A program made the translations under genes and the position numbers. Under the pieces are notes generated by a model. The model did not search any database. It worked only from the letters and a program-made list of their open reading frames with translations, and was not told the DNA's origin. Positions 2,319 to 56,258 of a stretch of DNA of 64,000 bases are shown here, piece after piece; the stretch's first letter is position 1, and each line of letters opens with the position of its first letter. The DNA lies in the IMG/VR virus record IMGVR_UViG_3300042691_042722, one strand, 5' to 3'. This stretch comes from an uncultured virus (IMG/VR IMGVR_UViG_3300042691_042722) (Duplodnaviria > Heunggongvirae > Uroviricota > Caudoviricetes).

Positions 2319-2375
2319 TTTTTTTTGTAGTTTCAAATAAAGGTTGTATTTTTGTATTCACAAAACACAATCACT

Positions 2376-3119
2376 ATGTCTACAATTACCACTTCCCGAG
2401 TTCAGAATTACCAAGGTGCTAACACTTTCATTATGAAGATGAAAGAATCTCTCAAAAAGTATAACTCATTGACTCCCAAGCAGTTAGAAGCTGTGGAGAA
2501 AATATTCAATTCAGAGGTCAAAGTTGATGTTGAAAACCTCCCTGAAGATTTCAAAAAAATCGCCAAATATGAGGGTGAAAACACCTTTGTTAAGGATTTG
2601 GCTAAGAAATTGTTAACATACGGAACCCTGACTCACAAGCAAGTGTCGGCAGCTTTAACCTCCATTCAGAAGGAGGAAGATAAAAAAAGAACCCTGAAGT
2701 TGAAGATCCCGGTTGTGGGAGATACGATCAAGGTTGGTCGTACAGTGGGTCAGGGACTCAAAGAACAGTATGGTCTTCAATTTAACCCCATTCTTTTAGA
2801 TGTTACCAAGATCCTGTCTGTATCACCTAAAGCGGTTAAATTCTCCGGTAAAATGACTATAAAACGTGGTGATGTGTGTGTATGTTGTGGTAAGACACTC
2901 ACTGATGAGTTCTCAATGTTAACCAAGATGGGTAAGCAATGTGCCGGACATATGAAAATACCTTATATCACAGATGCTAGTCAAGCTGAACAGTTCCGGG
3001 AGGCATATTTGAAACGTGTTGAAGAAATTGGTGAGATGGAGTTTTGGGTTCCAAAAGCTCAGATCAAAAAGTGGGAAGGAAAAGGGGAGACATTCCTTAA
3101 AATGATCCCCGTCATTTGA
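2376..3119 (+). CDS. conserved phage protein with DUF6011-like Zn motif
   Basis: CxxCGKTLTDxxSxxxxMGxxCA motif; TATTTTTG promoter at 2347-2354. Confidence 0.6.
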   Translation: MSTITTSRVQNYQGANTFIMKMKESLKKYNSLTPKQLEAVEKIFNSEVKVDVENLPEDFKKIAKYEGENTFVKDLAKKLLTYGTLTHKQVSAALTSIQKEEDKKRTLKLKIPVVGDTIKVGRTVGQGLKEQYGLQFNPILLDVTKILSVSPKAVKFSGKMTIKRGDVCVCCGKTLTDEFSMLTKMGKQCAGHMKIPYITDASQAEQFREAYLKRVEEIGEMEFWVPKAQIKKWEGKGETFLKMIPVI

Positions 3120-3161
3120 CATTCAAAACATAACTTATTATAATTAATCAAAATCAATCGT

Positions 3162-3590
3162 ATGACAGTTAAAAGAGCCCTAAAAGAGAAAAACAAGTTG
3201 GTTAAAGAATTAAATGACTTGTATGCCAAAATTAAAACATATAACTCCGTTGCGGAAGATGGGGAGAAACCTTACTCAACAAAGGAATTGATGTTGAATG
3301 TTGATAGCAAACTAAATGAGTTGGTTGAACTCAAAACCAAGATCCATCTAGCTAACGGACCGGTTTATGGTAAAATATTCAGAATGGCCGAGTTGAAATC
3401 TCACGTATCAAAACTGAGTAATTTGGATTGTTCATCCGGTAAGCAAAAGAGTTGGTCCGAGACCGAATACTCTAACAAGGTTAGTGAGATTAAAATCGTG
3501 GACAGAGATCGTCTAATTCAGATTGCTGAAAGTGAAATTGAGAAATTACAGGACGAACTAGATGAGTTCAATGCAACCACTAATATATAG
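3162..3590 (+). CDS. coiled-coil protein, DIP1984/septicolysin-annotated-like family
   Basis: MTVKRAL..K..L start, LKTKIHLAN core, LQDELDEFNATTNI end typical of the family; heptad pattern. Confidence 0.6.
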   Translation: MTVKRALKEKNKLVKELNDLYAKIKTYNSVAEDGEKPYSTKELMLNVDSKLNELVELKTKIHLANGPVYGKIFRMAELKSHVSKLSNLDCSSGKQKSWSETEYSNKVSEIKIVDRDRLIQIAESEIEKLQDELDEFNATTNI

Positions 3591-3748
3591 TATCGTTGTT
3601 TTTTGTTAAGTCAGTGGATTATTACATTCTTGAAGCTTAAGATGCACGAAATTGATATGTATTCAAAGGTCAAGATTCAACTTAGTTCAACAATTTTGTG
3701 TCAAACCTTAAAACTCTGTCTGATCCGATTTAACTTATAAACACGATA
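3591..3748 (+). ncRNA. putative structured RNA immediately 3' of the coiled-coil gene
   Basis: Nested stems TATCGTTGTTT/AAACACGATA, GTTAAGTC/GATTTAAC, GGATTA/TGATCC, GCACGAAATTG/CAATTTTGTGT with G-U pairs; loop holds TCAA repeats. Confidence 0.6.
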
Positions 3749-3752
3749 TAAA

Positions 3753-3776
3753 AAACCCACCTTTTTAGGTGGGTTA
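3753..3776. terminator. intrinsic terminator, probably bidirectional
   Basis: AACCCACCT-tttt-AGGTGGGTT between convergent genes. Confidence 0.75.
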
Positions 3777-3780
3777 ATTT

Positions 3781-4455
3781 TTATCCAAAACTAATTACAT
3801 CATTTATTTCAACATCAAGATCATCCTCGTAGTTTTCACCGTGGCTTAAAGTTATTGTTCCATTTTTGAAATCAAATACGAACTTACCTTGACTCCCTTC
3901 GTTAATCTCCCATCCTCCATAGTTTCCTAATTGGTTATACATCCAAGTTTCTAAATCTGCTGGTATTGTAATGTCTTCATCACCATCAAGAACCATTTTA
4001 TCTTCAATATACCCTGAATCTCCGGATCCTTCATAACTCACAACACCTTCATCATAACCGGTTATTTGAGGGGCAAAATCCTTCCAAGAATCTAATTCTT
4101 CTAAATCACCTAATTCCCACTCTTCACCAACCCAATTCGTATTCATTTCACGAACGTGTGATTTGAAGTAAATTATTTTCTTTACACAGTCAACACAAAA
4201 GTCAACTCCACCTGATTGATCATAATAACTAAAATTATCTTCAATAATTGGTAAAGTTATTTCTTCTGCAAATTCATTTATTGCGTCAAATCCTTCAATT
4301 TTAACTCTAACATCAGGAGATGTCCATCCTTCCCAAGACATTTCAGGGTGATCGTGATAAAATTCAAAACCTAAAGATCCTTGTTTAGTTCCATATGAAC
4401 CTAAATAAAGACAAAAAGTCTTCATTAATTTTTTTTGTTTATCGTCTAATTTCAT
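3781..4455 (-). CDS. DUF6878-like protein
   Basis: YEGSGDSGYIE and GWEINEGSQG.F.FD motifs; adjacent to a DUF6915-like gene. Confidence 0.6.
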   Translation of the reverse strand: MKLDDKQKKLMKTFCLYLGSYGTKQGSLGFEFYHDHPEMSWEGWTSPDVRVKIEGFDAINEFAEEITLPIIEDNFSYYDQSGGVDFCVDCVKKIIYFKSHVREMNTNWVGEEWELGDLEELDSWKDFAPQITGYDEGVVSYEGSGDSGYIEDKMVLDGDEDITIPADLETWMYNQLGNYGGWEINEGSQGKFVFDFKNGTITLSHGENYEDDLDVEINDVISFG

Positions 4456-4477: not shown

Positions 4478-4831
4478 TTAATCTGTGAATTCTAACTTTA
4501 TTGTTTTCATCATCCACAAAGGTCTTTTATTTTCATTTATATTGATTATCCATTCTTTAGCGGATGGTATGTAGTTATTACAATCTTCTTTGACGTGTTG
4601 TTCTCCGACGTATCTGACAAATACTTCCTTTCCATCACTATTTACAAAAGTTTTACCAAATCTTTGTTCCATTTCAAATATACCTTCTGAATGATGTCTG
4701 AACATTCTGTGCATTGAATCACCAAACCAACTTTTTGTTTCATCTAACCATTCGTGCAAGTGAATATAATCCTCCCATTTTCCACCAAATTTCTTTGCAC
4801 TTGACTTAGCATGTAACACTGGATGAGCCAT
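4478..4831 (-). CDS. DUF6915-like protein
   Basis: MAHP..HAKSSAKKFGG..EDY..LHEW.D, HRMFRHHSEG, EQHVKEDC motifs. Confidence 0.7.
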   Translation of the reverse strand: MAHPVLHAKSSAKKFGGKWEDYIHLHEWLDETKSWFGDSMHRMFRHHSEGIFEMEQRFGKTFVNSDGKEVFVRYVGEQHVKEDCNNYIPSAKEWIININENKRPLWMMKTIKLEFTD

Positions 4832-5443: not shown

Positions 5444-6358
5444 TTAAACTGTTAAACCCATTTTTTTGAGTTTTGCGTTCATATTACTAGCATAATTAGC
5501 AGCTGTATCGGTATAATAGTTTCTTTTTTTCAATAAAGTCGCATATACATTAACTGACTCAGCTTGTTTTAACATATCAGGTGTTACACCATTTTTGGTG
5601 AATTCAAAGTATCTTCCTAATTTATCTTTAATGCTATCTTCTATTGATTCATAATGAGCGTAAAAATCGTCATCAACACATTTTCCATTTCCCGGATCAA
5701 AACAAGCGTCAGGATAATTCTTAAAGGGATACTTTCTTTTACAACCATTTTTAGATAATTCATTAGGTGGTTTAATTCTTCCTCTACTTTTTATTAGTGG
5801 ATTATTTTTTATGAAAACCATTCCACCTAAATTATTATTACATTTGAAAACATTTGAAGTATAATCGCCGGTTTCGTGCCTGAACTGAGCAATAAGCATT
5901 AACGCGGCTTTTTCAGACCAACCTTTGTTAATTGCGGCTTCATAAACTTGAGCGTCTATACCGGTTAAAGATGTATTATTTTTTTTATTAGCGACTTGAA
6001 CAGTAGAAAAATTCTTGAATAATCCAACGACATCTATGAAATGTTTGTCAATCATCATCAACCAAAGAAAATCATCCTCATCTTCTGGATCAAACTCGTC
6101 CAAAATTAGTTCATCTAAGGTATTAAATTTCATCTGAAATATATTACCTTTACCTTTACAAGAAATGTAAGAATTTAATTCATTGTATTCTTGGGCGGTT
6201 TTTATTTTTTTTACTGCCGTAACGAACTCGGGTTCCTTTGTAGCTGCACCACTGGCGGCATCATCCAACTCTTCATAAATCTTTTTTATATTTTCTGATG
6301 CAATGCAATCATCTTTCGTCAGTGTCTTATATTGTTCTTCTGTTATCAATATTTTCAT
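5444..6358 (-). CDS. leader + annexin-like helical domain + GH73/glucosaminidase-like cell-wall hydrolase
   Basis: AQ..HETG....S......NNLGGM and Y.SIEDS motifs; MKILITEEQY leader. Confidence 0.6.
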   Translation of the reverse strand: MKILITEEQYKTLTKDDCIASENIKKIYEELDDAASGAATKEPEFVTAVKKIKTAQEYNELNSYISCKGKGNIFQMKFNTLDELILDEFDPEDEDDFLWLMMIDKHFIDVVGLFKNFSTVQVANKKNNTSLTGIDAQVYEAAINKGWSEKAALMLIAQFRHETGDYTSNVFKCNNNLGGMVFIKNNPLIKSRGRIKPPNELSKNGCKRKYPFKNYPDACFDPGNGKCVDDDFYAHYESIEDSIKDKLGRYFEFTKNGVTPDMLKQAESVNVYATLLKKRNYYTDTAANYASNMNAKLKKMGLTV

Positions 6359-10095: not shown

Positions 10096-10452
10096 TTAAT
10101 CTTTCTCAGGAGACTCTGTTAAATCTTCAATAACTTGAGGATCCGGTTGTATGACATGATCCAAAATTTCCTCGTTATCCATTAAGTTTTCAACAGATTT
10201 TTTTAGTCCAAAATTGGATAATTGACCTAATATATTGTATTTCAATGCTTTTTCTGTACTCATGAATCTGAAACCTATCCAAATAGTTACAGAACATATT
10301 GATATATAAAAAATTGAGAATTGTAAATTAAATGGTATCACTAATCCCTTGATTCCGAAGGCAATAAACATAACCATACAAATAATTGCTATCACCCGTT
10401 TGGATGAGACCTTGTTAGAGTCGGAAATTAGATGGTTAAAAAACTTCTTCAT
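10096..10452 (-). CDS. two-TM membrane protein, holin-like
   Basis: SSKR followed by two hydrophobic helices. Confidence 0.45.
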   Translation of the reverse strand: MKKFFNHLISDSNKVSSKRVIAIICMVMFIAFGIKGLVIPFNLQFSIFYISICSVTIWIGFRFMSTEKALKYNILGQLSNFGLKKSVENLMDNEEILDHVIQPDPQVIEDLTESPEKD

Positions 10453-10479
10453 ATCCATAAATATCTTATATTTGTGAAT

Positions 10480-11751
10480 ATGTTGACTGATAAACTCAAA
10501 CATATTCCCCAACATCCCGGTTGTTATTTGTTCAAAAATGACAAGGAACAGATCATTTATGTGGGTATGTCTAAGTATCTACCCAAGAGAGTCAAGTCTT
10601 ATTTCCAAAAAAATCACGATTCGGAGAAAACCAAATTACTTGTTGAACAGGTTAGTGATGTTGATTTCATGATAGCATCTTCCGAACAGGAGGCTATTCT
10701 TTTGGAGGAAGAACTAATTAAGTTATACAATCCCAAGTTCAATATCAAAGGTAAGGATGATAAGAGTAGGAAATGGTCTATTTGTTTTACTGACGAGCCA
10801 TTTTCTAAGTTGGAGATAGTCCGAAATAAGACCGATGAGAGACCTTCATTGGACTTCACTAGTGGATTACTGGCTCACGAGATATATGACCTTATTCACG
10901 ACATATTCCCCTTCAGGAGTTGTTCCTATTCTATCACACAAGAAAACATAGAGAAGTCCAAATTCAAAACTTGTTTGGAATATAGTTTGGGTAGATGTAA
11001 AGCTCCTTGTGTTGGTCTTGTGTCTTCATTTGAGTATTTGATGATGGTTAAGGGATGTAAGACCTTATTTACTTTGGATATTCACAAGGTGAGAAAAGAA
11101 CTCAAATCTGAGATGAAGTATTACTCAGATAAGATGGAGTTTGAAAAGGCGAATCAGGTGTTACACCGGATGAAGAGTTTAGATTTATTTGATCAGAAGG
11201 TTGAGGTGATCCGACTCAGTAATTCAAACAAAGTATCATATGAACTCAAAAAAGTTTTGGGTCTTAATCAGTTACCACTTGTAATTGAAGCGTTTGATAA
11301 TTCACATAATCAAGGTGATTGTAATGTTGCCGCGTCAGTTCGTTTCGTAAATAACAAACCTGATAAGTCAAACTACCGGAAGTATATTATCCGGGAACAT
11401 CAAGGTATTGATGATTATGCATCCTTTGATGAGGTATTACACAGAAGATTCAAACGTCTCCTTGATGAGAAGAAGGATCTACCTAATCTTGTTTTAATTG
11501 ATGGTGGTAAAGGTCAACTGAATGTCGCAATCAGGGTATTTGAAGAACTCGGACTAACAGATAAAATTGATCTCATCTCTATTTCAAAGAACGATAAACA
11601 TAAATCTTCTGTGGTTCACAAGTCAAATGGGGAAACATTTGACATACTATCAAACAATTCATTTACTAATCTTGCTAAGATACAAGATGAGGTTCATAGA
11701 TTTGCCATCAAATTCCACAATCAACGTAGATCAAAAAAAGTTTTAAAATAA
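10480..11751 (+). CDS. uvrC: UvrC-like excinuclease (GIY-YIG + UVR + RNase H-like domains; lacks C-terminal HhH)
   Basis: PGCYLF..IIYVG, IEAFDNSH, DDYASF.EV..RRF, LIDGGKGQ, QDEVHRFAI motifs. Confidence 0.9.
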   Translation: MLTDKLKHIPQHPGCYLFKNDKEQIIYVGMSKYLPKRVKSYFQKNHDSEKTKLLVEQVSDVDFMIASSEQEAILLEEELIKLYNPKFNIKGKDDKSRKWSICFTDEPFSKLEIVRNKTDERPSLDFTSGLLAHEIYDLIHDIFPFRSCSYSITQENIEKSKFKTCLEYSLGRCKAPCVGLVSSFEYLMMVKGCKTLFTLDIHKVRKELKSEMKYYSDKMEFEKANQVLHRMKSLDLFDQKVEVIRLSNSNKVSYELKKVLGLNQLPLVIEAFDNSHNQGDCNVAASVRFVNNKPDKSNYRKYIIREHQGIDDYASFDEVLHRRFKRLLDEKKDLPNLVLIDGGKGQLNVAIRVFEELGLTDKIDLISISKNDKHKSSVVHKSNGETFDILSNNSFTNLAKIQDEVHRFAIKFHNQRRSKKVLK

Positions 11752-14003: not shown

Positions 14004-14513
14004 ATGGTAATACAGGAAATTTCAAACAAAACAATTAATGTTCCCCACTTTTTACAATCAGATGATAGCTTATGTGGTCCGGCTTGTCTACGGATGGTGT
14101 TAGCGTTTTGGGGAATTAAAAAAACAGAAAAAGAGTTGGCACTTGCTTGTAATCACACCTATGAAAAGGGATGTCAGGGTGAAGATATGGTAAAAGCCGC
14201 AAGACAATTTGGATTTGATGCGTTCATCAAAAATAATTCCGATGTAAAAGAACTGAAAGGTTACGTTGATCTTGGAATTCCAATTATTGTGGATTGGTTC
14301 TGTGGTGATTTACCTGAAGGTCACTCCTCTGTTGTGGTGGGTGTTGATGATGAGAACGTATATATGTTAGATCCGTGGTTAGATGAGATGAGAGTTGTTA
14401 CAATTTATGATTTCAAGAGATGTTGGTTTGATTTCAGAGAAACACCGATAACACCCGATAATCTATATGTTTCTCAAATTATGGTTATTTTACCTAAATT
14501 TACATTTCATTGA
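14004..14513 (+). CDS. peptidase C39-like protein
   Basis: Q.....CGPACL.M, GH..VV, DP motifs; TATCTTTG promoter at 13972-13979. Confidence 0.75.
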   Translation: MVIQEISNKTINVPHFLQSDDSLCGPACLRMVLAFWGIKKTEKELALACNHTYEKGCQGEDMVKAARQFGFDAFIKNNSDVKELKGYVDLGIPIIVDWFCGDLPEGHSSVVVGVDDENVYMLDPWLDEMRVVTIYDFKRCWFDFRETPITPDNLYVSQIMVILPKFTFH

Positions 14514-29916: not shown

Positions 29917-30789
29917 ATGTCAAAAAGATTTGTAATTACCGAAGAAGAAAAAAATCAGATCCGAGGGATGTATAATCTCATAACTGAAGCAACAGAAGAA
30001 GATATCAAAAAGATGTTTGAATCTAAGTTTCCAACATGTTTCAATTTTAACGCACCAAATTCTAAATTTTATGAAGAGGGTGGAAAATTTTATTACCAAC
30101 ATTATAGTAAGTTACAAAAAGGGGATGTCAAAGTTGATTTGGATGGTAACATATATATATTAGGTGGATTGATGCAAGGTTCACAACGAAAAATTGATCA
30201 AAAGTGTGATAAGACATCTGTAAAAAAATCTCCGAACGAGATAGAAGTAGAAAATTTATTTAAGAAAAATCTACCATGTTATAATATTGAAGAAGAAGTG
30301 CCTTTTAAATTTCTCATCAAATCCCCTGAGGGGCATTTGATGACAGCACTACAGTTAAAACCATATACATTATATACAAATCCCATTACAAAACAAGTGA
30401 TTACAAAGGGAGGACTAAGTGATGGAATGGTTTTACAATATTCGTGCGAAAATGGTAAATTAATTGAGAAAAAAATAACCTCTGGAACCGAAAAAAATGT
30501 TCATCAAAGAAACCCTCAAACTTATTTTAAAAATGTTACTAAAGAAGAACCAATAGTTTTTGGTATGAGAGACCGATTGCAAAATGAAGATGGAATTATA
30601 TTCCAAATTCAAAAGAAATTAAAGGAATTAAATTATTACAAAGCAGAACCGGATGGTCAGTTCGGTCCCAAAACATATAACGCAATTATACAATTCCAAA
30701 AAGCCAACAAAGATACAGAAGGTAATCCTTTAAAACCTGATGGAAAGGTAGGACCTCAAACAATACAAGCTTTAGGTTTAAAGGATTAA
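29917..30789 (+). CDS. leader + C-terminal peptidoglycan-binding domain
   Basis: IQKKL....Y....DGQFGPKT..AI..FQ....DGKVGPQT..AL. Confidence 0.75.
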   Translation: MSKRFVITEEEKNQIRGMYNLITEATEEDIKKMFESKFPTCFNFNAPNSKFYEEGGKFYYQHYSKLQKGDVKVDLDGNIYILGGLMQGSQRKIDQKCDKTSVKKSPNEIEVENLFKKNLPCYNIEEEVPFKFLIKSPEGHLMTALQLKPYTLYTNPITKQVITKGGLSDGMVLQYSCENGKLIEKKITSGTEKNVHQRNPQTYFKNVTKEEPIVFGMRDRLQNEDGIIFQIQKKLKELNYYKAEPDGQFGPKTYNAIIQFQKANKDTEGNPLKPDGKVGPQTIQALGLKD

Positions 30790-36791: not shown

Positions 36792-37970
36792 ATGAAATTT
36801 ATTATAACAGAAAGACAATATAATAAGATCTCAAAAAGAAATATTTTTATTTTGGAATCAGAGGTTAAGGACGACCCCTTCGGTTGGAAGGAAATGGTCA
36901 AACACTATGGTAAAAAACCTTATGAAAAAAAATTCGAGGGTTGGAGTAAAATTCTCAAAGTATTTGATATAACTATTGATGGTCTTCCAGTTATGGTGCT
37001 AAGTAATTATCAATTGTGGGCAAAGGATACAGAAATTCTTATTGGTAATTGGAGATGGACTCCTTACGGCGGTTTTGAGCTTGAAACTGATAAAGAACAA
37101 ATAAATAGGTTAAAAATTCGAAAAAACCTAGAAGACGCAGCTTCTTATTGGGGAGGTACAAAGGCGAAAATTTTTGTAGACAATATTAGACAAATTAAAA
37201 CAAAGTATGATATTTTTGTGATGGAAGACGAAGAGTGGCTTATAAAACTTATCAAAAGGGAATTTGATCCCAAAGATAAGGATGATCAGTATTGGTTAAA
37301 AGAAATTGATAAACATTTTTATAAACAAATGAATATCATAACAAATTTCGCGAGTGGAAAACATAACAATGACAAATCTTTAGGTGAGCCTGAACCAACT
37401 AAAACACCTACACAACCAAAAACTATTGCAAAAGAAAATAAAGAAGGGTGGGAAGAAATTAAAAAATATTATAAGGCAACACCATTAAAAAAACAATGGG
37501 GTAAGGAACTTTATGAACTAATTGAAATAACACACCAAGGTAAGAAATTTTTTCTAAGGAATGATGGTGAAATAACTAATTCAAATATAACTTTGAGAGT
37601 AGGTAATTGGTCTTGGAAAAACAACAAACCCATTCTTAAAGGATTGGAACCCACAACAAAATCGGTTGGTTACATCAAAGGAGAAGAAGATGAGTGTGAA
37701 AAATCATTTTGTGAAGAAGATAAAATTGTTGGTCGTGGTGCTAGTGGTTATTGTGTGAAACAAATACAAACAAGATTATTGATATTCGTTGATGGAATAC
37801 AAATAACTAAAGACTTGCAAGGTTGTAAAAAAGATTCAGAACTTTGTGATGGGGTATATGGTAAAGAAACAGAAAAAGCTGTAATCCAATTCCAAAGAAA
37901 AAAAGGTATAAGTGATGATGGAGTTGTAGGTTGTCAGACATGGCAACATTTAGATTCAAGATTTGACTGA
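36792..37970 (+). CDS. leader + annexin-like + C-terminal peptidoglycan-binding protein
   Basis: MKFIITERQY; domain shared with 5444; DGVYGKET..AV..FQ...DGVVG..T. Confidence 0.7.
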   Translation: MKFIITERQYNKISKRNIFILESEVKDDPFGWKEMVKHYGKKPYEKKFEGWSKILKVFDITIDGLPVMVLSNYQLWAKDTEILIGNWRWTPYGGFELETDKEQINRLKIRKNLEDAASYWGGTKAKIFVDNIRQIKTKYDIFVMEDEEWLIKLIKREFDPKDKDDQYWLKEIDKHFYKQMNIITNFASGKHNNDKSLGEPEPTKTPTQPKTIAKENKEGWEEIKKYYKATPLKKQWGKELYELIEITHQGKKFFLRNDGEITNSNITLRVGNWSWKNNKPILKGLEPTTKSVGYIKGEEDECEKSFCEEDKIVGRGASGYCVKQIQTRLLIFVDGIQITKDLQGCKKDSELCDGVYGKETEKAVIQFQRKKGISDDGVVGCQTWQHLDSRFD

Positions 37971-40198: not shown

Positions 40199-41008
40199 AT
40201 GAAAAATATAAATGAAGAAATCAAAAGGTTTAAAGATTTAACTAACCATGAAAGAGGTAGAGTTATTTCAGAACAAAAAAAAGTTGATAACTTAATCAGA
40301 AGTGTTCTTAATGAAGCTAGTTTTCTACCATGTATCCAAGACGGAGAAGGTCTTTGTAAAATTAAGTGTAGAATTAAACAAGCAAAAAAAGGTTGTCCAA
40401 AAAGTAAAGAAGTAAAAGAAATTCAACATGCATTGGCTAAATTAGGATATTTCGAAGGAGAAGGTGGAGGTATGAGTAAGGAATGTGCAACCAATGTTGA
40501 AGCTTGTGATGGAATTTTTGATTGGAGAACAAAAAAGGCTGTTGAGGATTTTCAAACAGATAAAGGATTGACAAAAGATGGTGCGGTAGGTGAACAAACT
40601 ATCACAGCTTTGATAAATCCAACATGTGAATGTCAGAAAGAAACAACAACCGGTGGTGAGCAAGGTGGATCAGGAGGCAGGGATGGTACCATAACCGATT
40701 CAGAATGTCAAAGATATAAAGATTGTATTTCAAAACATATAAAACAGGGTGTTCCTGATATTCCCAATTTGTTGAAATGTTTGGGTTTAGATGAATTTGT
40801 AGAACAACAAGGTGGAGATAAAATTGAGCAACTACCCTCATATTGTGTTATTGATTGTCAGCCCAAACCCGCTGATAATGTGGAATTACAAAATTTGAAA
40901 AAAATATGTTGTGGGTCAAAAGATTTCAAATCGGAAGGTTGTAAATCTTTAATAAAATACTTTTTAAAAGATTTAGCGGGTTGTCCAAATGTAAAATTTG
41001 TATATTAA
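40199..41008 (+). CDS. leader + Cys-rich peptidoglycan-binding protein
   Basis: VKEIQHALAKLGY..DGIF...TKKAVEDFQ..KGL..DG.VG.QT..AL. Confidence 0.75.
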   Translation: MKNINEEIKRFKDLTNHERGRVISEQKKVDNLIRSVLNEASFLPCIQDGEGLCKIKCRIKQAKKGCPKSKEVKEIQHALAKLGYFEGEGGGMSKECATNVEACDGIFDWRTKKAVEDFQTDKGLTKDGAVGEQTITALINPTCECQKETTTGGEQGGSGGRDGTITDSECQRYKDCISKHIKQGVPDIPNLLKCLGLDEFVEQQGGDKIEQLPSYCVIDCQPKPADNVELQNLKKICCGSKDFKSEGCKSLIKYFLKDLAGCPNVKFVY

Positions 41009-41080: not shown

Positions 41081-41329
41081 ATGAAAGAGGATAAAAGTAT
41101 TGCATTAGAGAAAGTATTGAATGTTTTTTTGAAAAAAAAATTTCCACATATAAAAGAATTTTATGTTAATTGTGATGAAGATAATCGGTGTGAAGTCGGA
41201 ATAAACATAACCTATAATGATCTTTTGGATACCGATCAGTCAGAATTAGAAAATGAAGTTAAACGTCTCTCAAGAATGATCCTCACAGATAAAGGTGAAA
41301 GAGTAAACAGAATTTTTTTTTATGAATAA
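41081..41329 (+). CDS. hypothetical protein
   Basis: TATTTAT 6 nt upstream; KKKFPHI motif family. Confidence 0.6.
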   Translation: MKEDKSIALEKVLNVFLKKKFPHIKEFYVNCDEDNRCEVGINITYNDLLDTDQSELENEVKRLSRMILTDKGERVNRIFFYE

Positions 41330-41918
41330 AATTAGAAATTTAATTACGATAGTTTTACTAATCCTACCCACCTTACTTTTTTCACAGAAGTTAAGGGATA
41401 AAGTTCACATTAATGCGGGTATATATGAGATTATATACTCTGAAGTGTTGGAGCAACCACTATGGGTTAAATATGTGGTTAAATGCCCGAATGGAGACGC
41501 TTCAAGGAAGGGTATGGACTTTTACTTAGTTGATAGTGTAAAAACATCAGACCCCTTAGATTACTATAATAATGAATATGACAAGGGACATATGGCCCCC
41601 GCCGCTGATTTCAACTGTACGAGAGAAATGTTATATAAAACATTCAGTTATTTAAACTGCTCATTACAGAATCAAGATCTAAACAGAACCACTTGGAGAC
41701 TGCTTGAAGCAAGAGAAAGATTGTTAGCGGGAGAACATCCGGTTGTGGTTGTTGAGATAAATTGTGTGTTTTCAAAATCATCAATAAAACTACCAACAGG
41801 GGCAACAGTTCCGGATGGATATTATAAGACAATAAAATATGGAAATAAGGTTGAGAAGTATTATTTCAAAAATGATAAACCGACTACATTAGATTATTCA
41901 AAATATTTATTGAAATAA
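41322..41918 (+). CDS. secreted DNA/RNA non-specific endonuclease (NucA/EndA-like)
   Basis: Signal peptide; YDKGHMAPAADF, TF..LN..LQ...LN...W..LE. Confidence 0.85.
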   Translation: MNKIRNLITIVLLILPTLLFSQKLRDKVHINAGIYEIIYSEVLEQPLWVKYVVKCPNGDASRKGMDFYLVDSVKTSDPLDYYNNEYDKGHMAPAADFNCTREMLYKTFSYLNCSLQNQDLNRTTWRLLEARERLLAGEHPVVVVEINCVFSKSSIKLPTGATVPDGYYKTIKYGNKVEKYYFKNDKPTTLDYSKYLLK

Positions 41919-51217: not shown

Positions 51218-52246
51218 ATGAAATACGATTTTAATGATATAGTAATTGTTCCGGAAATTCTCACAAACATAAGATCTAGAAGTGAAGTGAACCCTTTTGA
51301 TAATTATGGTAATTTACCACTATTTGTGGCTCCGATGGATAGCGTTTTGGACACATTTAATTACAAATCATTTCTGAAAGAAGGTATTAATGTTTGTATG
51401 CCGAGAAATAAGTTAGTTTGGGATCAGGGATGTTTTCATTCTTTATCTTTGGAAGATTTTGAGGATTATATCAAAAACTATAAAGGTAAGGAATTAAAAT
51501 TCACACAAAATAAAAGAATATTAGTTGATATTGCCAACGGACATATGGGTAAACTATATTCACTTTGTCAAGAATTTATGGGTAGTGATTTATCGGAAAG
51601 TCACGAGTTAATGATTGGTAATATTGCAAATCCCAAAACATACGAAAAATATGCTCAGTTAGGTGTTGATTATGTTAGAGTGGGTATTGGCGGTGGAAGT
51701 GCTTGTTTAACATCCGCAAATACCGGTGTTCATTATCCTATGGCTTCTTTAATTTCTGAATGTTACGAAATTAAAAAATCTAACAACTTTCAAACTAAAA
51801 TTGTTGCGGATGGAGGGTTCACCAATTTTGATGAGATTATTAAGGCGTTGGCTTTAGGATCTGATTATGTTATGTTGGGGGGAATTTTTAGTCAGTGTTT
51901 GGAGTCCTGTTCAAAAACAAAAATATTAAATTTAATCCCGATTCCGGAAAGTAAAAAAACAATAATATGGGATAAGTACCCATTCATTAGAAAGTTTTTA
52001 ACAAAGTCATATCGTGGGATGAGCACAAAACAAGTTCAAAAAGATTGGAATAGAAAAACATTAAAAACCGCTGAAGGTATTGTAAAAACTAACCCGGTAA
52101 GGTATAAATTAACTTCTTGGGTTGAAAATTTTACGGATTATCTTAAGTCTGCGATGTCTTATACCAATTCAACCACGCTTGAAGATTTCAAAAAATCTCA
52201 ATATATTTTAATAACACAAAATGCTTTTAAAAGATTCAAAAAATAA
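51218..52246 (+). CDS. GMP reductase / IMP dehydrogenase family protein (no CBS domains)
   Basis: DFNDI.IVP, APMD, VDIANGH, VRVGIGGGSACLT, IVADGG, KALALGSDYVMLG, YRGMS, LKSAMSY. Confidence 0.85.
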   Translation: MKYDFNDIVIVPEILTNIRSRSEVNPFDNYGNLPLFVAPMDSVLDTFNYKSFLKEGINVCMPRNKLVWDQGCFHSLSLEDFEDYIKNYKGKELKFTQNKRILVDIANGHMGKLYSLCQEFMGSDLSESHELMIGNIANPKTYEKYAQLGVDYVRVGIGGGSACLTSANTGVHYPMASLISECYEIKKSNNFQTKIVADGGFTNFDEIIKALALGSDYVMLGGIFSQCLESCSKTKILNLIPIPESKKTIIWDKYPFIRKFLTKSYRGMSTKQVQKDWNRKTLKTAEGIVKTNPVRYKLTSWVENFTDYLKSAMSYTNSTTLEDFKKSQYILITQNAFKRFKK

Positions 52247-54189: not shown

Positions 54190-54422
54190 TAAAATTTTTA
54201 GCCTTATTGTTTTCAACATTTGTATTGGCCCTCAGGTTCTATGTTATTTATAAATTAATGCAATGGTTAGTTATAAATTACAATAATAACAATCCTTCTT
54301 TTTCAAGTATATATTGGTTTTTAGGGGTCATGTTTTTGGATATTTATATAGTTTCATTAGAAAAATCAAATAGTGCTGATATTTATTTTGAAAAAGAGGA
54401 TGAAAAAAACAGTATTAAATGA
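54186..54422 (+). CDS. small membrane protein
   Basis: Two hydrophobic segments; ATGA overlap. Confidence 0.5.
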   Translation: MIKFLALLFSTFVLALRFYVIYKLMQWLVINYNNNNPSFSSIYWFLGVMFLDIYIVSLEKSNSADIYFEKEDEKNSIK

Positions 54423-55167
54423 AATACACGAATTCAAAAAATTATCTGGTTCCTTAAACGAGAGTACCGATAAATACGCTCAACTTTATTCGGATATTTT
54501 GAAGTTATCAACGACAGCTTCAGAATCAATGAAAAAAAATGAGTATTTTATAAAACTAATCAATTTTTTCAAAGATTTATTACCATCCAATTTCACTTTA
54601 CCGGTTCAACCCACATCAACCACAGGTTCGGCTCCAATCTCATTACCATCAGGCCAAAAAATGACTCTGAAAAATTCAACAGATCAACAAATTGTTGATG
54701 TTGCAATGCAAAATGGATTTGAACCTGAGGCGGCGTTATTAGTTGCCGCTCAAGTAAGATTAGAAACTGCAGATTATAGTTCTTGTATAATGAAATGTAA
54801 TAACAATTTGTTTGGAATGAAATTCGTCGGTCAGGCTTTAGCAAAAAGAGGAACTTTAGCTCCAAATAAAGAAGTTAGTAAAGGTTGTAAACCAAATAAG
54901 TACGTAGGTTCGTGTGATTGTGAAAGAACTGGAGATGGTTGTATTGATAGTGACCACTACGCACGTTATAATTCTGTTAGTGATAGTATCAGTGACGCAA
55001 TTACAAGATTATTTGAGAAAACTAGAAAAGGAGTAACTCCAGAACAACTGAAAACCGCAAAAACTCCTGAAGAGTATGCCGATCTTCAAAAACAGAGAGG
55101 ATATTTCGGTGCTTCCGCAAGTGAATATGCGGCCGGACTCAAATCAAAGTTGAAAAAAATAATTTAA
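54400..55167 (+). CDS. leader + GH73/glucosaminidase-like hydrolase, paralog of 5444
   Basis: AQVRLETADY.S..MKCNNNLFGMK; YARYNSVSDS; GVTP..LK. Confidence 0.65.
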   Translation: MKKTVLNEIHEFKKLSGSLNESTDKYAQLYSDILKLSTTASESMKKNEYFIKLINFFKDLLPSNFTLPVQPTSTTGSAPISLPSGQKMTLKNSTDQQIVDVAMQNGFEPEAALLVAAQVRLETADYSSCIMKCNNNLFGMKFVGQALAKRGTLAPNKEVSKGCKPNKYVGSCDCERTGDGCIDSDHYARYNSVSDSISDAITRLFEKTRKGVTPEQLKTAKTPEEYADLQKQRGYFGASASEYAAGLKSKLKKII

Positions 55168-56258
55168 TCTTGACTTGGCTTCAAAACAGTCATCGCTTCC
55201 GGGTAATCAACACTCAATAATTTCTCATTTTTACTTTCATAAGGTATGTTTTGCAAAATATACCTGATTGCATTTAACCCGGAAACTTTTTTGTCAATAG
55301 AATCTAATATCACCCAAGGATGATTGATTGTGGATGTCCGATCAAATAGTTTTTCTTTAAATTCTGTGAATCTGTCCCATAAATCTTGCATTCTAGCATC
55401 GTTAGGTGAGTATTTCCAATATTTTAAAGGTGAATTCTGTCTCATCTCAAACCTTTTAGCTTGGGTTTCTTTATCAATTGAAAACCAAAGCTTAAAAAGA
55501 TAATCTCCATCCTTTACTAGTTCATTTTCAAAGTTTTCAACACCATCCATGAAATTTTGATACTCTTCTTCACTCCCATAACCCATAACAGGTTCAACTA
55601 AACCTCTATTATACCAACTTCTATCAAATAAATTTATTTTTCCTTTTTCAACTTGGGATTCATACCTTTTCCACCAATTTTTTCTTTCTTCAGGAGTCGG
55701 TATACCTAATGCAATTACTTTATACCCCCTTGGATTCATATTTTCTGTAAATTTTTTGATTGTTGACCCTTTTCCGGCGCTATCTCTACCTTCAAAAACA
55801 ACAATTACTGTCTTTTTTGTTTTATTTAACCATTCTTGAAGTTTGAGAAGCTCAACTTGAAGCCAATAAAGTTCCTTTTTGAACACTTTTTTTGGTAAAA
55901 TTGAAGGTTCATCAAAATCTAAGTCAAATTCGTCACTTTCCGGCTCTATTTGATAGATACCTTTTTCTCGGTTTTTGAGCGAATTGAGAACTTTTTCAAA
56001 ATATTCACCAACATTTTTTCTTTTATTACCTTTTTTTAATAAAACCTTCTTTAAACCTCTTTCTAAAAGGTCAAAATCTATAATTTGTTCACTGGAAAGT
56101 TCAATTATTTGATTTAAAAGTTCATCAAGGGTTGAACTCATCATATCATTGAAACTCAATATGTTGCGTATACTCTGAATGTGTTTTTCATCCAAACTTT
56201 CAGATAAATCCCCCATAATTGTCCGGATTTTTTTAATTTCTTGGATTATTTTTTTCAT
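55164..56258 (-). CDS. ppk2: polyphosphate kinase 2 with N-terminal leader/extension
   Basis: LQVELLKLQ, FEGRDSAGKGSTIK, FDRSWYNR, KLWFSI, PLKYWKYSPND. Confidence 0.9.
   Translation of the reverse strand: MKKIIQEIKKIRTIMGDLSESLDEKHIQSIRNILSFNDMMSSTLDELLNQIIELSSEQIIDFDLLERGLKKVLLKKGNKRKNVGEYFEKVLNSLKNREKGIYQIEPESDEFDLDFDEPSILPKKVFKKELYWLQVELLKLQEWLNKTKKTVIVVFEGRDSAGKGSTIKKFTENMNPRGYKVIALGIPTPEERKNWWKRYESQVEKGKINLFDRSWYNRGLVEPVMGYGSEEEYQNFMDGVENFENELVKDGDYLFKLWFSIDKETQAKRFEMRQNSPLKYWKYSPNDARMQDLWDRFTEFKEKLFDRTSTINHPWVILDSIDKKVSGLNAIRYILQNIPYESKNEKLLSVDYPEAMTVLKPSQD

Follow-up and report, generated by a model that had tools for sequence, protein, structure and literature searches.

A predicted structured RNA with phased UCAA units linked to DIP1984-like genes in large phages and some Bacteroidota

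Several described systems rely on short RNA motifs displayed in multiple copies: HutP reads UAG every 7 nucleotides (nt) in two sets of three, TRAP reads 9–11 triplets and CsrB displays GGA. Here we describe an RNA element of comparable design in a 64,000-nt stretch of DNA from an uncultured tailed virus (IMG/VR record IMGVR_UViG_3300042691_042722), hereafter the window, where it occupies positions 3590–3749 of the plus strand, directly behind a gene for a DIP1984-like protein. As in the hut RNA bound by HutP and the trp leader bound by TRAP, a short motif recurs on a fixed phase, here about three GAU and three to seven UCAA units that are predicted to be mostly unpaired. However, the HutP and TRAP sites are part of 5′ leaders, where they govern a terminator, whereas the present element lies 3′ of the gene and its motifs sit inside a closing stalk; the HutP and TRAP folds are also unrelated to that of the DIP1984-like protein. 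The CsrB and RsmZ sponges likewise carry many copies of a short motif on a structured RNA ending in a terminator, but the motif here is UCAA rather than GGA, the RNA is co-transcribed with one particular gene and the phasing is strict. In the RNase III stalks of rRNA precursors, T7 early mRNA and lambda sib, the flanks of a functional RNA come together as an interrupted stem of 20 base pairs (bp) or more, as the flanks of the element in the window are predicted to do over 28 bp. TnpB with its omega RNA, Ro with Y RNA and ToxIN show a similarly strict linkage between a protein gene and a structured RNA, omega RNA also being 3′ of the gene; unlike these, the element has no Rfam match and no transposon end, guide or reverse transcriptase nearby. 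ToxIN, a type III toxin–antitoxin system, has repeat units tens of nucleotides long, placed in tandem ahead of the toxin gene and separated from it by a terminator, an arrangement that differs from the one found here.

The protein is closest to the DIP1984 family (NF038048, PF20935, structure 3kdq; often labelled ‘septicolysin’), with which it shares the fold, the size and a colinear alignment to the profile hidden Markov model (HMM). By contrast, the window protein falls far below both family cut-offs, belongs to mainly viral clusters of its own and is accompanied by the 3′ RNA. More than 8,000 candidate structured RNAs of 29–151 nt, shorter than the element, have been catalogued from IMG/VR (Fremin et al., 2023); nothing corresponding to the element was found in the searched part of the supplements of that study, and fragments of it could be listed in the catalogue.

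Comparison of related loci shows that the predicted structure of the RNA is conserved, its linkage to the gene strict and its orientation fixed. The RNA thereby appears to represent a new family, and gene and RNA together a new module, albeit of a known general kind, namely, a structured RNA carrying repeated protein-binding motifs. In the window, the cassette comprises the following features:

3116–3144, plus strand: candidate promoter TTGACA-17 nt-TATAAT, matching 12 of 12 sigma-70 consensus positions, its end 17 nt before the ATG
3162–3590, plus strand: gene for a DIP1984-like helical-bundle protein of 142 amino acids (aa), assigned from HMM matches, predicted structure and structural matches
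3590–3749, plus strand: whole structured RNA element, the 3′ part of the gene's own transcript, delimited by fold and covariance models
3590–3626, plus strand: 5′ strand of stalk P1, starting at the last base of the stop codon, with covarying helices
3628–3642, plus strand: P2, a small side hairpin TCTTGA-agc-TTAAGA in the centroid fold, with double changes at all six pairs of helix 4
3641–3656, plus strand: 5′ array GAU/GAA/GAU at 3641, 3648 and 3654, on a 6–7-nt phase
3645–3700, plus strand: P3, a 10-bp helix of 3645–3654 with 3691–3700 closing the loop 3655–3690, seen in the fold and as helix 5 of the family
3663–3690, plus strand: four UCAA units at 3663, 3670, 3677 and 3687, spaced by 7, 7 and 10 nt inside the loop
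3701–3716, plus strand: fifth UCAA (3701) and conserved box, UCAAACC UUAAAACUC, the most conserved stretch of the family
3717–3749, plus strand: 3′ strand of stalk P1, supported by fold and covariation
3754–3782, both strands: intrinsic terminator with a hairpin (3754–3775) flanked by an A-run on the 5′ side and a T-run on the 3′ side

In both the minimum free energy (MFE) and the centroid folds, 3590–3626 pairs with 3717–3749, forming a 28-bp stalk in segments of 7, 4, 8, 6 and 3 bp. The fold of 3588–3780, terminator included, has a z-score of −4.52, with none of 200 shuffles equally stable, whereas without the terminator the z-score is −2.35 and 5 of 200 shuffles are equally stable; the minus strand folds too (z −3.34). 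Taken alone, the fold is only modestly unusual, and the case consequently rests on the comparison with related loci. The original prediction, made from the letters of the window, had described a long nested hairpin running from the stop codon to a terminator. The 28-bp stalk and the matches of covariance models R1 and R3 (see below) bear this out, and the open reading frame (ORF), the TCAA units at 3663, 3670, 3677, 3687 and 3701, the side hairpin at 3628–3642 and the terminator all lie where they had been placed; as for the statement that the gene is ‘fused’ to the RNA, the two do belong to the same transcript unit, but co-transcribed is the proper word. A small ORF within the element (3603–3740) was considered as a coding sequence and excluded on account of the 7-nt period and of insertions and deletions of lengths not divisible by three.

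A scan of viral contigs yielded 44 loci with protein identities of 37%–59%, almost all of which, when inspected by eye, carry GAT units, TCAA units, ...TTAAAACTC... and a terminator downstream of the gene; across all loci with gene and RNA, protein identity descends to ~30%. Nearly all of 25 diverse elements, folded singly, contain a long-range helix between the bases following the stop codon and those preceding the terminator, the sequence of which is entirely different between clades. Covariance model R1, built with an RNAalifold structure from eight sequences of one clade other than that of the window, matches the window over its full length on the plus strand (3592–3750, E 5.7e-6), as well as elements of other clades, again full length and always on the strand of the gene. 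R2, a sequence-only model made from the alignment of R1, scores 5–19 bits lower on divergent members and misses four of them (loci L059, L043, L018 and L072). A broader covariance model, R3, scores 80 bits in the window (E 1e-10), its sole match in 64 kb. Exactly one full-length R3 element, on the strand of the gene and 0–16 nt past its stop codon, is present in 67 of the 77 gene-bearing sources; the misses are L033 and nine loci from metagenome-assembled genomes (MAGs), in some of which the arrays are still visible by eye. In an independent metagenome sample selected by protein, R3 matches 73 of 80 loci at E ≤ 0.01, and five of the seven misses have 0–81 nt of downstream DNA, leaving L268 and L269 as true misses (73 of 75 loci with downstream DNA). 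Conversely, a motif-first scan gave 21 loci with R1 E ≤ 0.003, the gene lying immediately upstream in 20 of them and the remaining one being at a contig end, and no strong RNA matches away from the gene were found in covariance-model scans of the fetched loci. The element measures ~160–195 bases across the family. Consistent with an undescribed RNA, Rfam 15 gives no match at the gathering threshold in the whole window and, in E-value mode, only weak sub-gathering matches, most of them overlapping the terminator; the search of the window for tRNA and tmRNA found none.

Covariation was assessed against a slid control, in which the 3′ partner is moved by 1–3 columns. In alignment A6 (54 distinct sequences), 89.7% of cells are paired compared to 39.6%–44.1% in the slid control, with double changes at 34 of 34 pairs; the values for alignment A7 (63 distinct sequences) are 92.4% and 35.4%–46.7%, with double changes at 33 of 34 pairs. 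The observed score was reached by 0 of 500 shuffles for each alignment. Helix 5 (P3) is 93%–94% paired at the family level and includes double changes, whereas P2 differs between clades in both sequence and length and is absent from the L006-type clade. As fitting to the model biases both alignments towards the structure and so weighs against these figures, an alignment-free test and an all-against-all scan were added. The former used 33 distinct elements bounded by the stop codon and an independently detected terminator: at least eight MFE pairs join the first and last 28 nt in 30 of them, and at least 15 in 28, the mean number of closing pairs being 16.3 versus 3.3 in dinucleotide shuffles. 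The observed value was reached by 90 of 1320 shuffles, mostly derived from L010 and L014. In the all-against-all scan of A7, the model accounts for 16 of the 17 best pairs, and no convincing extra pairing emerged for the core. Two other approaches were abandoned. Plain MAFFT alignment of the 25 diverse elements followed by RNAalifold gave 0 pairs, the flanks being misaligned, and was replaced by a clade seed with covariance-model iteration; a duplex-energy test of the 5′ against the 3′ flank (z < −2 in 10 of 45) was poorly controlled, its 3′ windows holding the C-rich terminator arm, and gave way to the closing-pair test, single-sequence energies not being decisive.

G-U cells are frequent in A7, with GU in 18 and 17 sequences at two stalk pairs, and, together with the constant orientation, favour an RNA read from the plus strand, as had been argued from the G-U pairs of the window. 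The proposed two-component module of gene and RNA has likewise withstood the comparison, downstream structure, covariation and phased YCAA repeats all being kept in homologues.

The interior of the element is organized differently from the stalk. Across the family, the TCAA or CCAA units are most often spaced by 7 nt (88 intervals), the next commonest distances being 8 nt (33) and 14 nt (21), and each element holds three to seven copies, the first base being U in 97% of the units; CAA is invariant by definition of the repeat search. On average, UCAA is predicted to remain single-stranded more often than the element as a whole (0.57 versus 0.44), a difference seen in 49 of 54 elements. Upstream of these units are about three GAU (or GAC, GAA) units on a 6–7-nt phase, with GA and GAU positions invariant in the 25-sequence alignment, and downstream of them is the most conserved stretch, UcAAaacUtAAAAcUCtUU, with the invariant box UYAAAAYUC. 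The sequence TTAAAACTC occurs twice in the window, against 2.16 expected occurrences. In clade A the box could be read as a promoter (TTGTCA, 17 nt, TAGAAT), a candidate that was rejected, given that the −10-like hexamer is not kept elsewhere and the invariant bases fall into the ‘spacer’; the UCAA-motif aptamers against the reverse transcriptase of human immunodeficiency virus are a coincidence of name and were given no weight.

The ORF at 3162–3590 (plus strand; stop codon TAG at 3588–3590) encodes a protein matching NF038048 (DIP1984_fam) with E 2.1e-6 and 28 bits against a cut-off of 70, below the curated threshold, in a full-length colinear alignment of residues 6–135 to profile positions 5–135 of 149. 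The match to PF20935 (DUF6847), too, lies below the curated threshold (E 0.0028, 18.1 bits against a cut-off of 27), although a few close homologues do carry a precomputed PF20935 match. An AlphaFold model based on a 35-sequence alignment (mean predicted local distance difference test score 90.4) displays four long helices and a beta-hairpin. Only 3kdq, described as a ‘functionally unknown conserved protein from Corynebacterium diphtheriae’, resembles it clearly in structure; the match was found by Foldseek with template modelling scores of 0.70/0.66 and probability 1.00 and by VIA-align with Z 13.0 and a root-mean-square deviation of 3.1 over 140 of 142 residues, the next chain having Z 8.0. 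Thus, judged by the model, the resemblance to DIP1984 that had been suggested for this protein is real, being sub-threshold by sequence and clear by fold; its description as a coiled coil holds insofar as the protein is helical, but a four-helix bundle with a beta-hairpin describes it better. Of 481 candidates from a large protein collection, 450 are relatives at E ≤ 0.001, almost none of which has a name, and the neighbours in the ESM Atlas are mostly viral clusters, along with one Bacteroidota ‘putative septicolysin’ cluster. The protein had no match in PHROGs or PADLOC and nothing significant in sequence searches of the PDB; blastn against GenBank phages gave no match and tblastn only two uncultured huge phages. 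In the part of the full-text literature that could be searched, DIP1984, DUF6847, PF20935, 3KDQ and septicolysin occur as annotation mentions only, and no functional study was found.

Since the 12-of-12 promoter at 3116–3144 precedes the gene, the RNA and the terminator, these four elements appear to make a self-contained cassette. The promoter is called from its consensus match. Promoter matches of at least 10 of 12 positions are found in most related viral loci, 6–29 nt before the start codon, and no Shine–Dalgarno sequence was evident by eye in the upstream stretches of these loci. In L032, L035, L043 and L099 the −10 hexamer ends 6–8 nt before the ATG, and these versions of the cassette may give leaderless mRNAs. 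In L033, L040–L042 and L053 the sigma-70-type promoter is replaced by TATATTTG, which we take to be the Bacteroidota −7 motif, TAnnTTTG, and G+C hairpin terminators are absent from the same loci. The terminator stem of the window (3754–3775) consists of nine pairs, five of them G-C, followed by the T-run; it is mirrored on the minus strand and hence usable in both directions, including for the convergent gene at 3781–4455. In the Bacteroidota MAG loci L168–L173, the 3′ strand of the stalk is directly followed by 8–9 T without a separate hairpin, and the stalk may double as the terminator.

Six metatranscriptome runs contain a small share of the 2.1-kb stretch around the element. Of the four that were mapped, three, each belonging to a different study, have RNA-library contigs extending past the stop codon into the element (3495–3743, 3545–3737 and 3470–3745), and the fourth run covers the ORF only. 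These contigs agree with co-transcription and lend it weak support, as they may contain DNA and cannot show RNA ends; the contig ends at 3737–3745 and the mostly uncovered flanking genes are unusable as evidence without a DNA run alongside. At the DNA level, 11 runs from seven studies, a count that excludes three possible source samples, contain 64%–91% of the sampled words; seven of these bear freshwater or lake-water labels and the remaining four are listed as ‘fungus metagenome’.

The RNA was found in more than 140 fetched loci of freshwater and, in part, marine origin. Beyond the gene and the RNA, no neighbour is common to all loci. The cassette is found in large phages (contigs of 300 kb and more, the longest 368 kb) and in some Bacteroidota chromosomes. 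Matches in the genome collection are labelled Bacteroidota MAGs in 17 of 20 cases, and in two such MAGs the neighbours are ordinary cellular genes, including those for a PKD protein with a type IX secretion sorting domain, a PIN protein, an M48 peptidase and a GNAT protein. Because the family HMM detects the gene in only two of the 301 Bacteroidota genomes searched, the cassette is sporadic and probably mobile.

What the module might do can be approached through the organization of the core. The stalk would hold out a largely unpaired region with about three GAU units, three to seven phased UCAA units and the UYAAAAYUC box, and this region may act as a multivalent single-stranded platform, each short unit being taken by one protein subunit; we infer a platform read by an oligomeric protein because the unpaired motifs are invariant, the phase is fixed and the copy number is variable. 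As the cassette sits behind both sigma-70-type and Bacteroidota-type promoters, the partner would be phage-encoded or universal, and one-to-one linkage on the same transcript favours the co-encoded protein, which would most likely load in cis while being made, resulting in a ribonucleoprotein (RNP) or in feedback on its own mRNA. Binding of the RNA by the protein of its own gene, as RNP or feedback, is the reading that we tentatively prefer, although we would put it at somewhat less than an even chance. At ~28 bp, the stalk would also be long enough to serve as an RNase III processing stem releasing the inner RNA, such stems having about two helical turns or more. A fully elaborated version, in which DIP1984-like subunits assemble in cis on the UCAA and GAU units into a new RNP that is released by RNase III and acts early on a conserved host process, is unlikely to hold in all its parts; if true, it would provide the first function for the DIP1984/DUF6847 fold and an RNA family spanning phages of several host phyla.

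Several observations weigh against binding by the co-encoded protein, or against the module as drawn here. The protein is near neutral, with a median isoelectric point of 6.45 and a median net charge of −1; by helix, helix 1 is basic (+5) and the last helix acidic (−6), only helices 1 and 3 being positive. One RNA per mRNA means few RNA copies per protein, and the RNA-library contigs are insufficient as proof of transcription. A small zinc-ribbon ORF intervenes between gene and RNA in four of the 44 viral loci, so that direct adjacency to the stop codon of the DIP1984-like gene itself is not essential. Furthermore, three canonical DIP1984 genes, located in a genome from a Bacteroidota sample (L189), an Acinetobacter plasmid and an Enterococcus plasmid (L270 and L271 being the other two loci), lack such an RNA: they have no phased repeats and, with terminators removed, no unusual fold (z −0.74 and +1.24). 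RNA binding would therefore not count as a demonstrated property of the DIP1984 fold.

The inserted ORF (L001:3439–3627; also L002, L009 and L044) encodes a zinc-ribbon-like protein of ~62 aa with a CxxC...CxxC pattern, and its own TAG again supplies the first bases of the stalk. Judged by spacing, an insertion is also present in 9 of the 73 metagenome matches (e.g., L210, L212 and L213).

A less likely, yet serious, alternative is that the RNA serves to sequester, as decoy or sponge, a universal host factor or a defence nuclease, the neighbouring protein acting in the same pathway without binding the RNA. Phage RNA decoys exist, including pseudo-ToxI and RNA anti-CRISPRs. A consensus host promoter suggests early and strong expression, and the occurrence of the cassette across host phyla, as well as beside ordinary genes in Bacteroidota chromosomes, fits a conserved cellular target; the protein not being basic and the UCAA tract being G-poor, with UC every 7 nt, point in the same direction. 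Candidate targets would presumably include Rho (YC dimers in a G-poor tract), NusA, NusB/E (ACUCAA-like and CUCUUU-like strings) or an RNase. However, the Rho, NusA and boxA resemblances are putative, there is no match to 6S, Y RNA or other Rfam families and a sponge acting in trans leaves the strict one-to-one linkage and the position at the stop codon unexplained, features for which binding by the co-encoded protein accounts more readily.

We consider it unlikely, too, that the RNA is purely a cis-acting element of the 3′ untranslated region, concerned with mRNA stability, 3′-end formation or processing and having no dedicated protein partner. T7 RNase III sites and lambda sib retroregulation offer parallels, the stalk does run from the stop codon to the terminator, the RNA-library contigs pass from the ORF into the element without interruption and, in some clades, the stalk precedes the U-run directly without a separate terminator hairpin. 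Yet invariant single-stranded motifs and a phased 7-nt repeat present in varying numbers are not required of a stabilizer; moreover, the element is kept with one gene family only, and the RNA stays intact where the small ORF is inserted.

It is very improbable that the arrays act at the DNA level, with TGA(T) and TCA(A) forming inverted arrays of one duplex site, such as iterons, a partition site or a recombination hot spot. UGA and UCA are indeed complementary, which makes the two arrays inverted copies of one duplex motif, and half-copies flanking an inserted gene (L001, L008 and L009), one of them with the sequence of another lineage, indicate that recombination occurs here. Nevertheless, the orientation relative to gene and terminator is constant, the many G-U cells would be C-A mismatches on the other strand, a covarying long-range stalk has no obvious role in duplex DNA and a 7-bp phase would put the sites on different faces of the helix. 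Least probable of all is a type III-like toxin–antitoxin pair in which the RNA neutralizes the protein, as the original prediction had entertained: although a two-part module of protein and repeat RNA on mobile elements, with canonical DIP1984 genes on small plasmids, recalls such systems, the RNA is 3′ of the gene on the same transcript (~1:1), the motif is 4 nt on a 7-nt phase rather than a tandem unit of ~36 nt, the fold is that of 3kdq and not of a ToxN-like RNase, and PADLOC gives no match (nuclease activity may still exist).

Regardless of the mechanism, a widespread covarying RNA without an Rfam family is associated one-to-one with a protein family of unreported function, and the phased repeats suggest a definite hypothesis amenable to bench work, the cassette with its perfect E. 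coli-type promoter being suited to direct expression and probing in a laboratory strain. Should the protein bind the RNA, an orphan fold (3kdq) would be explained and phage biology would gain a new RNP; should it not, the RNA remains a candidate decoy for a conserved host factor.

The half-copies mentioned above are second, partial copies of the element, limited to the box, the 3′ strand of the stalk and the terminator (L008:4590–4680, L009:5738–5830 and L001:4771–4837). They are located 1–2 kb downstream, flanking an inserted minus-strand gene, and the copy in L008 is of the type of another lineage (L014-like). Such 3′-half copies, with bounds at about L008:4560–4680 and L009:5720–5830, are read as recombination scars and not as separate genes; the conserved RNA seems to serve as a recombination junction between phages.

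Convergent with the cassette in the window are 3781–4455 (minus strand; DUF6878, E 1.3e-11) and 4478–4831 (minus strand; DUF6915, E 8.8e-40), which are syntenic with the cassette in ~10 related loci only. The upstream gene, 2352–3119 (plus strand), has a weak DUF6011-like zinc-finger match and a phrog_4046 match; its homologues, with 58%–65% identity in 11 loci, lie downstream of the cassette in L035 and L037. Directly after the element of L053, ~200–290 nt past the stop codon of the gene, there is a string resembling a tRNA, GGGGTAGCTCAGTTG..., which may contain an insert. The remainder of the window (5444–63744; 31% G+C) resembles the accessory region of a large phage and includes peptidoglycan-binding or hydrolase genes (5444–6358, 29917–30789, 36792–37970, 40199–41008 and 54400–55167), genes for a UvrC-like GIY-YIG nuclease (10432–11751), a C39 peptidase (14004–14513), an NS-type endonuclease (41322–41918) and PPK2 (55164–56258), and an IMPDH/GMP-reductase-like gene (51218–52246).

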